Virus record (IMG/VR): IMGVR_UViG_3300027721_000010
Location: 1-31,002 of that record
Length of the DNA stretch: 31,002 nt
Strand: one strand, 5' to 3'
Source: a virus
Taxonomy: Duplodnaviria > Heunggongvirae > Uroviricota > Caudoviricetes
In this document: positions 21,568 through 24,822 of the stretch, piece after piece
How the letters are laid out: each line of letters starts with the position of its first letter
Numbering within the stretch: position 1 is the stretch's first letter
Notes under the pieces: generated by a model
What the model was told of the DNA's origin: nothing
What the model saw: only the letters and a program-made list of their open reading frames with translations
The model's database searches: none
Made by a program: the position numbers and the translations under genes

Positions 21568-21789
21568 CTAACTAAACTTGTTTAAATATTTGGACAGCAA
21601 GATATAGCAGGCAAAGAACGATCCTGAGATTCCATAGAAGATAAGATCGGCTGCCCAGAATGAGCCAGTTACCTCCATTATCAACTTGAAAAGGAAGTCG
21701 TACCCAAAAGGTAGGAAGAACATTCCCAGCATTAGGGAGACGTCTCTTAAGGTTGTTAATTTCTTTCTTTGCTTTCTTAACATGCTCAC
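21568..21789 (-). CDS. Small 2-TM membrane protein (holin-like candidate)
   Basis: Basic N-terminus, two hydrophobic segments (LMLGMFFLPFGYDFLFKLI; FWAADLIFYGISGSFFACYILL). Confidence 0.65.
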   Translation of the reverse strand: MSMLRKQRKKLTTLRDVSLMLGMFFLPFGYDFLFKLIMEVTGSFWAADLIFYGISGSFFACYILLSKYLNKFS

Positions 21790-21810
21790 TTTCCATAGAT
21801 TTAGTATTGG

Positions 21811-21936
21811 TTAACGACCCTGTCCCCTATACTTAGAGACAGCTTTATCTTTGGGACCGCTAGATTTTCTAGCCTTTCCACCCTTGCGTTTGCCAAAGGT
21901 GATTTTTCTAGAGTCTGAAGCTTTTGGTTTTGCCAT
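21811..21936 (-). CDS. 41-aa basic protein ending YRGQGR (absent from ORF track)
   Basis: Manual translation MAKPKASDSRKITFGKRKGGKARKSSGPKDKAVSKYRGQGR; resembles a common small phage family. Confidence 0.75.
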   Translation of the reverse strand: MAKPKASDSRKITFGKRKGGKARKSSGPKDKAVSKYRGQGR

Positions 21937-21942
21937 TTTGGT

Positions 21943-23055
21943 TTATTTTTTATTTTTTTCCTCTTGGGTTGCGTACTTAATACCCATAATTGTTCCTACT
22001 ATCGAGAATGCGTTGGTAAGCAATACGCTAAACATATTAGACCAAGTTGAACCAATAATCTGCGTATCCTTATTTGACAATATTGCAAATGAGTACATTA
22101 TGGTGGTAATAAATCCAACCGACATAATTACAAACAAAGCTGATTTAACAATCACTTTAATTAACTCGCTTTGACTCTTCTTTATCGTTGCATCCAAATC
22201 ATTCAAGGCTGCATCTTTTTCCATCTCTATTGCCAATCTAAGCTTGTTTGAGTTGTCTAACTCTATTTGCAAGTTCTTAGATAGTTCGTTTATTTTGTTT
22301 TTGCTATTTATAGTTTCAGTAATGTCATTGGCAATTTTCATTACCTTTTTGCAGGTGCCATCGTTGCTAAGTATGGGATTGTAAGTGGCTTTCAAATAAA
22401 TAGGAGTGCCATCTACTTTCCTTCTTTCATACTCGCCTTCAAAGAACTTGCCGCTGCTTAACTTTGCCCAAAACTCCTTGTATTCTTCTGACTTTGAATA
22501 CTCATAGCTAACAAAAATGCTGTGGTGCTTCCCAATAATTTTGCTCTCATCTTTTTCGTCAAAGCCCATTGCTTTCAAAAAAATAGAGTTCGCTCCCAAT
22601 ACATACCCGTCACAATCAAAGTAAATGATGGCGTTGCTTTTACTCACTGCGCCAATCTCATTCTTTGCTATGACCGTTGTGCTTACATCACTAGCAATCT
22701 TCATTATCTTGGTTACCTCGCCATCCTCATTCAGTATTGGATTGTAGGTTGCCTGTAGATAAATAAGATTGCCATCTACTTTTACCCTCTCAAACTCCCC
22801 CTCAAAGAACTTTCCTGCTCTTAGCGTTTCCCAAAACTTAATATAGTCATCTGACTTTACATATTCAGGAGAAACAAAAATGCTATGGTGTTTACCAATA
22901 ACCTTTTCGTGTTCTCCATCCTTATACCCCATCGTTTCTAAAAAGATAGAATTAACCCCAAGAATAAACCCATTGAGGTCAAAGTATATGATGGCATTAC
23001 TACGATTAATAGCCTCCATCCTACTCAGTAGCTCTTCTTTACTGAGGTTCTTCAT
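21943..23055 (-). CDS. Tandem PAS/PAC sensor protein with coiled coil and two C-terminal TM helices
   Basis: Two repeats of SNAIIYFD..G..LG.NSIFL..MG...IGKHHSIFV...FW..L..GKFFEGE.ER...DG..IYL.ATYNPIL (chemoreceptor-type PAS); no kinase, GGDEF or MCP output domain. Confidence 0.85.
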   Translation of the reverse strand: MKNLSKEELLSRMEAINRSNAIIYFDLNGFILGVNSIFLETMGYKDGEHEKVIGKHHSIFVSPEYVKSDDYIKFWETLRAGKFFEGEFERVKVDGNLIYLQATYNPILNEDGEVTKIMKIASDVSTTVIAKNEIGAVSKSNAIIYFDCDGYVLGANSIFLKAMGFDEKDESKIIGKHHSIFVSYEYSKSEEYKEFWAKLSSGKFFEGEYERRKVDGTPIYLKATYNPILSNDGTCKKVMKIANDITETINSKNKINELSKNLQIELDNSNKLRLAIEMEKDAALNDLDATIKKSQSELIKVIVKSALFVIMSVGFITTIMYSFAILSNKDTQIIGSTWSNMFSVLLTNAFSIVGTIMGIKYATQEEKNKK

Positions 23056-23296
23056 CGTTATTTCCTTTTGTCTTGTTAATCCATTTATCTACAGAAGCTA
23101 TTCCAAAAGCTCCCAGTACAATTATCATGAATCCATCAAATATGAATTGGTGGATGGGCATTTCTCTACCCAGAATACCAGTGATAAGATCTGTAATCAG
23201 AGCTACCACCATCATGAGGAAGGCAATAAATCCAACCACAGCTTTCTCATTAATAGAGTTGTTGTCGTTAAATAAATCGTGTAAAAACTTTTTCAT
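23039..23296 (-). CDS. 2-TM holin-like protein
   Basis: Two hydrophobic helices, charged C-tail, ATGA-coupled to endolysin. Confidence 0.6.
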   Translation of the reverse strand: MKKFLHDLFNDNNSINEKAVVGFIAFLMMVVALITDLITGILGREMPIHQFIFDGFMIIVLGAFGIASVDKWINKTKGNNDEEPQ

Positions 23297-23892
23297 GCTA
23301 ATAAATTGTAATATTCTTTAAAATGTTTGATACGATCAGCAAGACCAATTGTACCACCGTTTACGCGTTTTGTAACAGAAGTTACCACCGCATCTGTAGC
23401 ACCACCATCCGCTATCTTGTGCAAACCGTTCTTATGGAAGAACCAAGCTGCAGAAAGCAGAGGATATTTGCTAGCCACCAAGTCAGGATTAGCTAGGATG
23501 TCTTCAGGAACTACAGCATCGAAAGAAGTGTAGTTTTGTTTACCTGTAAGTTGGATGTAACCTCTTCCACGAAACTTCCATCCCTCACCAGAAGCCTCAG
23601 GACCATTTCCCATTCTTCCTCCATATACCAGATTAGCTATCTTCTCAGGCTTACGCTCGTATTCCTTAGCTTTAGCTTCTGTGGGGAAATACTTCTTGAA
23701 GATTCCAAGAAGACCCTTGGCACCATAGTTTAGGTTCTCACTTGTAGCCTTGAAACCACCACTCTCGTGACCACATTGAGCCAGGAAGTGAGCTAGTCTT
23801 AAGGGTGTATTGAGTTCAAACTTTTGTACTGTGTCAGGGATCTGAGCCAGTACAGCATCTGGGATGTGTCCTTTTAATTTCTCTATATTCAT
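23293..23892 (-). CDS. Endolysin, glycoside hydrolase family 19
   Basis: RLAHFLAQCGHESGGF..ENLNY, G.GWKFRGRGYIQLTGK.NY, RVNGGTIGL. Confidence 0.92.
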   Translation of the reverse strand: MNIEKLKGHIPDAVLAQIPDTVQKFELNTPLRLAHFLAQCGHESGGFKATSENLNYGAKGLLGIFKKYFPTEAKAKEYERKPEKIANLVYGGRMGNGPEASGEGWKFRGRGYIQLTGKQNYTSFDAVVPEDILANPDLVASKYPLLSAAWFFHKNGLHKIADGGATDAVVTSVTKRVNGGTIGLADRIKHFKEYYNLLA

Positions 23893-24500
23893 TTCTTAAG
23901 CTTTAGTTTCCAATAAGTGCCTACTCCGTACATAAAATCGCCATAAGTATTTACACTTAGTGACCCTCCAAACAGAAAATCCTTCCTAGTTTTCAGAAGA
24001 GCACCCACCGATATCTGCTGGTTCTGGCTATTCGTTTGGAAGGCCCCCCCTACATACAGCTGATTCACTTTTTTTGCAGGAAGAGTGATAGTTTCCTTAA
24101 TTATGGGATACTTAATGTTCACTTGTGTACTTCTTCCTACAATAAGATTCTTCTGAACAGTATCAATGATCTTTACGTATCCATTCGTATCAATGCGCAC
24201 ACTATCCTGCTGGATATTCTTTGCAAGTAGTTGATTTACAACCTCTTGATACTGAAGTACCAATTTTTGGTAATTAGTATCTGGGATGTAATGGTTGATG
24301 ATAGTATCATGTGATTCTATCTCAATAGTCTTTACTAGCTGAGGTTTGCTGTATATCAGGGAGTCTTTTACCACCCAAGCTGTATCCCTAACAATTGTAG
24401 GTTCTTCAGAAGCACCAGGTTGAGCACATTTTTGTAGAGCCACCACTATTAGCAGCACCACTATGGCTAAGCTCAATAAATTCTTCTTAACAAACTGCAT
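23889..24500 (-). CDS. Envelope-anchored protein, putative spanin/lysis accessory
   Basis: N-terminal hydrophobic segment followed closely by Cys (ALQKC), five D-[ST]-[AVIL] motifs, C-terminal beta-strand-like region; immediately upstream of endolysin. Confidence 0.5.
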   Translation of the reverse strand: MQFVKKNLLSLAIVVLLIVVALQKCAQPGASEEPTIVRDTAWVVKDSLIYSKPQLVKTIEIESHDTIINHYIPDTNYQKLVLQYQEVVNQLLAKNIQQDSVRIDTNGYVKIIDTVQKNLIVGRSTQVNIKYPIIKETITLPAKKVNQLYVGGAFQTNSQNQQISVGALLKTRKDFLFGGSLSVNTYGDFMYGVGTYWKLKLKK

Positions 24501-24501
24501 A

Positions 24502-24822
24502 TCAATTAGTTAGGTTGGCAAAGATTTTGGTGATGTACTCAGCACCCATCACTAAAACTCCTAAAATAGCTGCGGCCCAGTACACCTTCTTTTTGAAATC
24601 CTCATGCTTTTCCACCTTTTTCTCTAACGTAGTGATCTTTGCTTTAAGATCATCTATCTCTTTAACAAATCCACCTTGCTTGGTAAGAGGGTTACCTAGG
24701 ATAGCATCGATTACTTGTGTAAGTTTAGTATCGATGGAGTTGATTTTTTCCTCCATGTCATATAGACGCTGATCCATGCTCTTGAGCTCTGATTTTACTT
24801 GTTCTTCAAATACATTTTCCAT
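24502..24822 (-). CDS. Coiled-coil protein with single C-terminal TM (holin/antiholin-like)
   Basis: Two heptad segments, then VYWAAAILGVLVMGAEYITKIF; first gene of the lysis cassette. Confidence 0.55.
   Translation of the reverse strand: MENVFEEQVKSELKSMDQRLYDMEEKINSIDTKLTQVIDAILGNPLTKQGGFVKEIDDLKAKITTLEKKVEKHEDFKKKVYWAAAILGVLVMGAEYITKIFANLTN

Follow-up and report, generated by a model that had tools for sequence, protein, structure and literature searches.

A tandem-PAS protein with a near-invariant membrane hairpin as a candidate accessory regulator in phage lysis cassettes

The timing of lysis largely sets the burst size and fitness of a phage, and signal-dependent control of lysis is, to our knowledge, mechanistically well understood only for lysis inhibition of the T4 type. 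The locus described here raises the question of why a gene for an intracellular sensor stands among the lysis genes of a phage and on what such a sensor might act. The window (the whole stretch of DNA that was analysed, 31,002 nucleotides, positions 1 to 31,002 of IMG/VR virus record IMGVR_UViG_3300027721_000010) is part of a 95-kb record that also encodes a ribonucleotide reductase (RNR), a UvsX-like recombinase, PhoH, and endonuclease VII, and its source is therefore read as a large phage that appears lytic. A sequence-only reading of the window had described a PAS-PAS-coiled coil-two-transmembrane (PAS-2TM) protein devoid of kinase, MCP, or GGDEF output, lying in a cassette of TM protein, spanin-like protein, GH19 endolysin, holin-like protein, PAS-TM protein, basic peptide, and 2-TM protein, and had proposed a lysis-linked sensor acting as holin or antiholin. 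The layout of the protein is borne out by Pfam, NCBIfam, and an AlphaFold2 model, and the cassette order holds on the minus strand (Table 1). The labels "spanin-like" and "holin-like" are only descriptive, as neither protein matches a named family.

Table 1. Features of the lysis cassette and of the PAS-2TM protein in the window, with related features at other loci (L numbers)
Feature	Position	Strand	Evidence
106-aa coiled-coil protein with C-terminal TM helix, weakly XhlA-like, first cassette gene	24502..24822	(-)	phrog_937 "hemolysin" 3.5e-07; Pfam XhlA 0.0046, below cut-off
203-aa protein (cluster c8), N-terminal TM helix or signal anchor	23889..24500	(-)	ORF; no family match; 83% in sister phage
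GH19 endolysin, without TM or SAR segment	23293..23892	(-)	Glyco_hydro_19 4.2e-08; phrog_181 endolysin 9.4e-68
85-aa 2-TM protein ("c0"), holin-like	23039..23296	(-)	ORF; no Pfam or PHROG family
PAS-PAS-coiled coil-2TM protein, 370 aa	21943..23055	(-)	ORF; Pfam PAS x2 only; AlphaFold2 model
PAS-A (aa 15-128), predicted cytoplasmic	22672..23013	(-)	Pfam best stretch 19-126; PAS-fold strands and helices in model
PAS-B (aa 138-248), predicted cytoplasmic	22312..22644	(-)	second Pfam stretch; match to FAD-binding PAS of MmoS (3ewk) 1.2e-08
Coiled-coil signalling helix (aa 249-296), runs into TM1	22168..22311	(-)	model helix 246-326; heptad-like hydrophobic registers
TM1 (aa 297-325), moderately variable	22081..22167	(-)	mean Kyte-Doolittle hydropathy 1.75
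Near-invariant 33 residues (aa 331-363), short outer loop and amphipathic TM2	21967..22065	(-)	alignment of loci
41-aa basic peptide	21811..21936	(-)	tblastn conservation in other loci
73-aa 2-TM protein, last membrane gene of the cassette	21568..21789	(-)	better-conserved frame
Basic peptide copies elsewhere	L004:5661-5780, L207:5202-5330, L212:4866-4994, L215:2399-2527
Single-PAS members	L004/L005 and 27 loci among L091-L201

The PAS-2TM protein scores against the Pfam families PAS_3, PAS_9, PAS, and PAS_4 with 72.5, 69.2, 65.2, and 56.7 bits (cut-offs 22.6-27; E = 3.4e-20 for PAS_3), in two stretches each, and NCBIfam recognises only the PAS S-box in it (TIGR00229, 82.1 bits). Pfam detects no kinase, MCPsignal, HAMP, or GGDEF domain in the 370 residues, and besides PAS a search at E <= 0.1 returns one chance-level match to DUF272. 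In the AlphaFold2 model, which was built from a 26-sequence alignment and has a mean pLDDT of 83, residues of about 20-123 and 142-244 form two PAS folds, each a five-stranded antiparallel sheet flanked by helices, with pLDDT of about 90 over both domains; these are followed by one unbroken helix (246-326), in which the coiled coil runs straight into TM1, then by a five-residue turn and a second helix (332-362). Since the N-terminus has no signal peptide and the hairpin is Lys-rich at both ends, we infer an N-in/C-in topology that would place both the sensor and the tail in the cytoplasm. Many members carry the JGI name methyl-accepting chemotaxis protein, an assignment that was rejected for the protein of the window, which has no MCPsignal or HAMP domain and whose part after PAS-B amounts to only 122 residues of helix and TM hairpin.

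The PAS-2TM family comprises 4,373 database clusters at E <= 0.001, the best 120 of which show 66-98% identity. Thousands of relatives (64-98% identity) come nearly all from phage contigs, many of them lake-metagenome contigs of 50-124 kb, and the family is large and essentially phage-only. Among 185,579 prokaryote genomes, the gene is found only on four short MAG contigs (Ignavibacteria, Flavobacteriales, Saprospira, and Saccharibacteria bins), which are most likely mis-binned phage DNA; the bin labels give a weak hint that the hosts belong to the Bacteroidota group. A search of the GenBank phage collection with the protein returned only three partial PAS matches.

Within the cassette of the window, the first 17 nt of the PAS gene, counted from its ATG at position 23055, overlap the end of the upstream ORF (23039-23296), exactly the overlap that the sequence-only reading had reported, and the 85-aa 2-TM gene and the PAS gene are, judging by this overlap, translationally coupled. 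At the far end of the cassette, two almost fully overlapping frames of 73 and 74 aa occupy 21568-21796 on the minus strand, of which the 2-TM frame is conserved better (82 vs. 76%, 64 vs. 41%). The very basic peptide, 41-42 aa in length, recurs in 16 other loci at 49-88% identity by tblastn, nearly always in or beside a lysis cassette and irrespective of whether the PAS gene is present. It has the core FGKR..GKA.K and the C-terminal end KYRGQGR, matches no family, and is, on the strength of its conservation, a real small gene of the cassette. A scan for sigma-70 promoters gave a site count not above that of shuffled sequence.

Association with endolysins was followed across 88 fetched PAS-2TM loci, in which ORFs were called and neighbours clustered. 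The recurrent neighbours include endolysins of the GH19, Peptidase_M15_3, and Phage_lysozyme (GH24) families, a PG_binding_1 protein with endolysin-like PHROG matches, the 85-aa 2-TM family, and Phage_holin_4_1 holins in three clusters, each of which exceeds the Pfam cut-off. In one lineage (L014:4764-5864 (-) and related loci), a polyphosphate kinase 2 (PPK2) gene (3.6e-71) is divergent from the PAS-endolysin operon, and in other lineages a ribonucleotide reductase lies directly upstream of it. A same-strand endolysin is present no more than three genes from the PAS gene in 61 of the 68 loci that have at least three genes on each side (directly adjacent in 29), and the remaining 7 have no recognised endolysin close by; counted by distinct neighbour architecture, the same pairing is found in 42 of 48. 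An independent, non-redundant set retrieved with a degenerate DNA pattern has an endolysin within three genes in 27 of 28 loci among the matches listed, and the two sets pooled give a same-strand endolysin at this distance in 88 of the 96 loci with enough flank. These endolysins belong to four unrelated families and occur in at least 48 different local gene orders, with intergenic gaps in the PAS loci mostly of -4 to +40 nt. RNR, PPK2, exonuclease, and tail genes vary around the PAS gene, as does the endolysin family, and the pairing with an endolysin stays. Because it persists despite exchange of both the endolysin family and the neighbours, this comparative evidence is taken to establish the PAS-2TM gene as a member of phage lysis cassettes. 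The genomic contexts of its homologues are not random, in agreement with the consistent adjacency to endolysins on which the earlier proposal had been made to depend.

The same evidence bears on the possibility that the gene has no function in lysis and is instead a host-takeover or exclusion gene, which would interfere with host PAS signalling or block superinfection and would simply occupy a variable slot beside the lysis genes. The slot is indeed variable, since sister phages hold three other small genes or two multi-TM proteins in it, and the PAS pair is of a subtype seen in cellular multi-PAS sensors, to which it has about 40% identity. Yet the adjacency persists when the endolysin family and every other neighbour are exchanged, and its observed frequency of 92% compares with about 5% expected, by our own estimate, for a random gene to fall within three genes of an endolysin in a phage of about 100 kb. 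No PADLOC defence model matches either, and a function unrelated to lysis is considered quite unlikely.

The distribution of the gene points to an accessory rather than a core function. With the 85-aa neighbour as query, 80 loci (L206-L285) were obtained, 48 of them with enough flank; an endolysin is near in 35 of these 48, and a PAS gene in only 4. Five of the loci share the cassette of the window, with the 106-aa, 203-aa, endolysin, and 85-aa genes followed by the basic peptide, the 73-aa protein, and fibre genes, and hold in the PAS slot either a 94-aa TM and coiled-coil protein with a lipoprotein (in one case also a 142-aa protein) or two multi-TM proteins. One of these sister phages, a complete 114-kb genome that has terminal repeats, carries this cassette with proteins 82-89% identical to those of the window and contains no PAS-2TM homologue anywhere. 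Its PAS slot (L207:4242-5198) holds three genes: the first encodes 94 aa with a coiled coil and a TM helix at the N-terminus, the second a lipoprotein of 109 aa, and the third a coiled-coil protein of 142 aa whose TM helix is C-terminal; the first two of these resemble an i-spanin/o-spanin pair. Neither the 94-aa protein nor any Phage_holin_4_1 gene is present in the 95-kb record of the window itself. Judging from these exchanges, the PAS slot is a swap point for lysis accessory genes. Of the 88 PAS loci, 30 have Phage_holin_4_1 and 51 have the 85-aa family; 18 loci have both, and 25 have neither. Because a sister phage sharing the cassette lacks the gene, and because Phage_holin_4_1 holins are present in 30 of the 88 loci, comparative evidence indicates that the PAS-2TM gene is an optional cassette module and unlikely to be the core holin. 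The earlier proposal of a lysis-linked sensor is thus supported as far as cassette membership is concerned (61/68 and 27/28 loci) and lacks support where it would make this protein the core holin.

It is accordingly quite unlikely that the PAS-2TM protein is the holin proper, that is, a class II-like two-TM hole former with a built-in cytoplasmic sensor. Such a role would suit the N-in/C-in two-TM topology, the Lys-rich tail, and the adjacency to endolysins, and it would suit in particular the L014-type loci, in which the PAS gene opens the operon directly before a soluble GH19 endolysin with no other membrane protein between or beside them, as well as the 25 of 88 loci that have no other recognised holin candidate within five genes. 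It is at odds with the complete sister phage, which has the same endolysin and cassette and no copy of the gene, with the co-occurrence of Phage_holin_4_1 holins in 30 loci, and with the absence of any holin family match in Pfam, PHROGs, and NCBIfam. Holins are typically small membrane proteins with one or more TM helices and a charged C-terminus, encoded next to the endolysin; the PAS-2TM protein has 370 aa, and its near-invariance is unlike that of any holin family known to us.

The 85-aa 2-TM proteins form a widespread family that neither Pfam nor PHROGs recognises, with a mean column identity of 43%. Most of the loci found through it have an endolysin and no PAS gene, and it is a promising candidate for a group of holins not yet described. 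This neighbour is central to the suggestion, also made in the sequence-only reading, that the PAS-2TM protein is a classical antiholin, whose hairpin would bind its own holin (here the coupled 85-aa protein) and block oligomerisation until the PAS domains bring about release. Signal-dependent antiholins have a precedent in T4 lysis inhibition, in which the holin T is controlled by the periplasmic antiholin RI and the cytoplasmic antiholin RIII (PMC11413866, PMC8385771). In addition, 51 of 88 loci have a member of the 85-aa family next to the PAS gene, with frames that often overlap (by 17 nt here) or lie 1 nt apart, and the PAS-2TM gene is accessory, as antiholins are. However, the presumed partner is variable, as the column identity shows, and missing from 37 of the 88 loci, 25 of which have neither it nor Phage_holin_4_1. 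TM2 remains unchanged, although a binder of variable holins should co-vary with them, and the variants of TM1 do not follow the subtypes of this neighbour. Profile similarity between the hairpin and the 85-aa family is also lacking (a profile-profile comparison gave a probability of 11%, that is, no relation). Co-folding of the hairpin (aa 285-370) with the 85-aa neighbour returned a score of 0.00 and a chain pLDDT of about 50, values too low to inform either way. An antiholin acting on the neighbouring 85-aa protein is thus doubtful, and the antiholin explanation as a whole is regarded as unlikely.

The membrane hairpin shows the strongest conservation in the protein. Residues 331-363 are identical in 88 of 88 fetched loci, a count subject to partial ascertainment bias because one of the six peptide patterns used to fetch these loci lies within the invariant stretch; a less biased search with the whole protein finds the exact 33 residues in 111 of 120 proteins, and the other nine carry one to four changes, most of them conservative. 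In the family alignment, mean pairwise identity is 0.75 for PAS-A, 0.68 for PAS-B, 0.69 for the coiled coil, 0.72 for TM1, and 1.00 for TM2. The DNA underlying the 33 residues exists in 53 distinct versions, and their codons use every synonymous family, including both Ser and both Leu families. Since so many nucleotide versions draw on all synonymous codon families, the loop and TM2 are evidently under extreme purifying selection at the protein level, and their identity reflects neither recent transfer nor a DNA element. TM2 itself is weakly hydrophobic (mean KD 0.86) and bears one continuous small/polar face (S336-N340-S343-T347-S351-G354-G358).

A scan of IMG/VR with a degenerate TM2 DNA pattern, which requires the exact motif, found at least 111 new ORFs, and the complete ones among the matches listed all have two PAS domains (66) or one PAS domain (27), with a GAF or kinase/receiver input in none of these; one short ORF among the matches is probably broken. 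Proteins consisting of the hairpin alone were looked for, and both candidates inspected on longer contigs are artefacts: one is a scaffold cut at an N-run with the full PAS pair upstream, and the other starts inside PAS-B. Many "short" family members in databases are likewise artefacts of N-gaps, frameshifts, or contig ends (L090:5875-6000; L089:5489-6001). A feature search of the ESM Atlas with the hairpin, PAS clusters excluded, gave only a 0.78 match to a 104-aa viral cluster, which is below the useful level.

The explanation preferred here, tentatively and with not quite even confidence, is that the PAS-2TM protein is an accessory, sensor-coupled regulator of lysis timing that acts on a constant target. 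In general terms, the protein probably allows the phage to time lysis by an intracellular signal, and the modelled structure, in which a rigid helix links the cytoplasmic sensor to the membrane hairpin, is suited to signal-dependent control of a membrane step. The protein would dimerise via its coiled coil, and the ligand or cofactor state of the PAS domains would be passed along the helix to alter the packing of the hairpin in the inner membrane, with the net effect that lysis would be advanced or delayed according to a cytoplasmic signal. A constant target is favoured because the hairpin hardly varies, whereas holins and holin-like neighbours are diverse among the phages. Membrane depolarisation triggers holins, and one candidate for the target is the hairpin's own oligomer, which would form a gated leak, lower the membrane potential, and fire whichever holin is present. 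Another would be a conserved host membrane component, and a specific phage holin seems less likely than either. Self-assembling holins and pinholins are normally very variable; the invariance of TM2 is therefore unlike that expected of a plain self-assembling pore and may point to a host target. A further point against the regulator reading is that the adjoining endolysins lack any SAR or signal segment and could not be released by a small leak alone.

A ligand-gated membrane "fuse", in which the PAS domains would act via the rigid coiled coil to open or assemble a bundle of the near-invariant, polar-faced TM2 helices, dissipate the proton-motive force, and trigger any holin, is conceivable and rather unlikely. 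If true, phages would possess a portable trigger of lysis, independent of the holin, through which a metabolite, redox, or energy signal in the cytoplasm sets the time of the burst, and no earlier PAS domain would have had a membrane pore as its direct output.

The PAS domains offer partial clues to the signal that a lysis-timing regulator of this kind might read. Among proteins of solved structure, the nearest in sequence is MmoS with its FAD-binding tandem PAS domains (1.2e-08), followed by Aer, NifL, and phototropin, and the closest by fold (Foldseek) are MmoS, DosP, LOV-PAS, NifL, and FixL, with a probability of 1.00 to MmoS, DosP, NifL, and FixL. Cellular relatives with about 40% identity are long multi-PAS sensors in which the signatures GxHHxxF and A[ST]YNP are repeated many times, and because these are the same signatures, the phage pair is, by this comparison, derived from a common cellular tandem-PAS subtype. 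In NifL and Aer, the flavin is contacted by the Trp of the FW motif, by the Glu or His after GxN/GxxH, and by an Asn on the G-beta strand. Alignments with MmoS (3ewk), NifL (2gj3), and Aer (8dik), the best matches in sequence and fold, indicate that the PAS-2TM family retains the FW-motif Trp (W75/W196) and the GxxH His (H57/H178), with a Phe at the position of Aer W79. Unlike these three proteins, which share an Asn on the G-beta strand, the family has an invariant Arg there (R90/R211), which thus replaces what we take to be a flavin-contacting residue; their outputs, a kinase, a NifA-binding domain, or an MCP domain, are also missing from the PAS-2TM protein. The family alignment contains no invariant Cys, and PAS-A contains no Cys at all, so that LOV photochemistry and a c-type haem PAS (CxxCH) were ruled out. 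Invariant PAS residues cluster on the pocket-lining PAS elements, in keeping with a retained sensor. Redox or energy state is one candidate for the signal, and the sensing of redox state or O2 raised in the sequence-only reading is one possibility among several.

Single-PAS members of about 250 aa make up roughly a quarter of the family and keep the coiled coil and hairpin unchanged. They correspond to a deletion that stays in register and fuses the beginning of PAS-A with the latter half of PAS-B, which looks like the outcome of unequal recombination between the two PAS repeats.

Among known systems, RI and RIII of T4 resemble the PAS-2TM protein in being accessory phage proteins that make holin firing signal-dependent, as proposed here, and in operating at the inner membrane with soluble domains carried on, or acting on, membrane proteins. 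The PAS-2TM protein nevertheless has no homology to RI or RIII in sequence and no relation to them in fold, and PHROGs returns no family for it. T4 senses superinfection in the periplasm by a dedicated domain, whereas the PAS-2TM protein has standard cytoplasmic PAS domains fused via a coiled coil to a hairpin; and RI binds one specific holin, whereas the hairpin is invariant across phages with different holins.

Pinholins of the S21-68/class II type have two TM helices in an N-in/C-in arrangement, are about 70 aa long, lack a sensor domain, are diverse in sequence, and serve SAR endolysins. The PAS-2TM protein shares with them the two TM helices, the short outer loop, a small/polar stripe on the second helix, and a basic C-terminal tail, and their output, membrane depolarisation, is the one proposed for it. 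It differs in its 296-aa cytoplasmic part, in the soluble endolysins that accompany it, in its near-invariant helix, and in having no holin-family match.

VqmA-Phage of vibriophage VP882 is a soluble PAS-HTH transcription factor that governs a lysogeny-to-lysis switch (PMC8284805), and it is the only described case of a phage PAS sensor that a literature search retrieved. Like the role inferred for the PAS-2TM protein, it is a phage PAS receptor that ties host killing to a small-molecule signal. In contrast to VqmA-Phage, the PAS-2TM protein has no DNA-binding domain, is predicted to be membrane-anchored, and is encoded inside the lysis cassette of a large, apparently lytic phage. A full-text search of the literature retrieved no paper in which PAS domains are connected with holins, antiholins, or endolysin cassettes.

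An abundant lake-metagenome family thus places a standard intracellular sensor directly on a predicted membrane effector within lysis cassettes, and phages of freshwater bacteria may routinely read the internal state of the host before bursting it. An output from PAS domain to membrane hairpin would be novel as a signalling architecture and might serve as a tool for lysing cells under the control of a ligand. The pair formed by the phage of the window, which has the gene, and its complete sister, which has none, together with the 33 invariant residues, provides immediate experimental handles. A further relative, BFVD entry A0A6J5L941, is a 528-aa tandem-PAS histidine kinase of an uncultured Caudovirales phage that shares 36% identity with the PAS pair over 262 aligned columns and has a kinase output instead of the membrane hairpin; phage PAS sensors with other outputs therefore exist.
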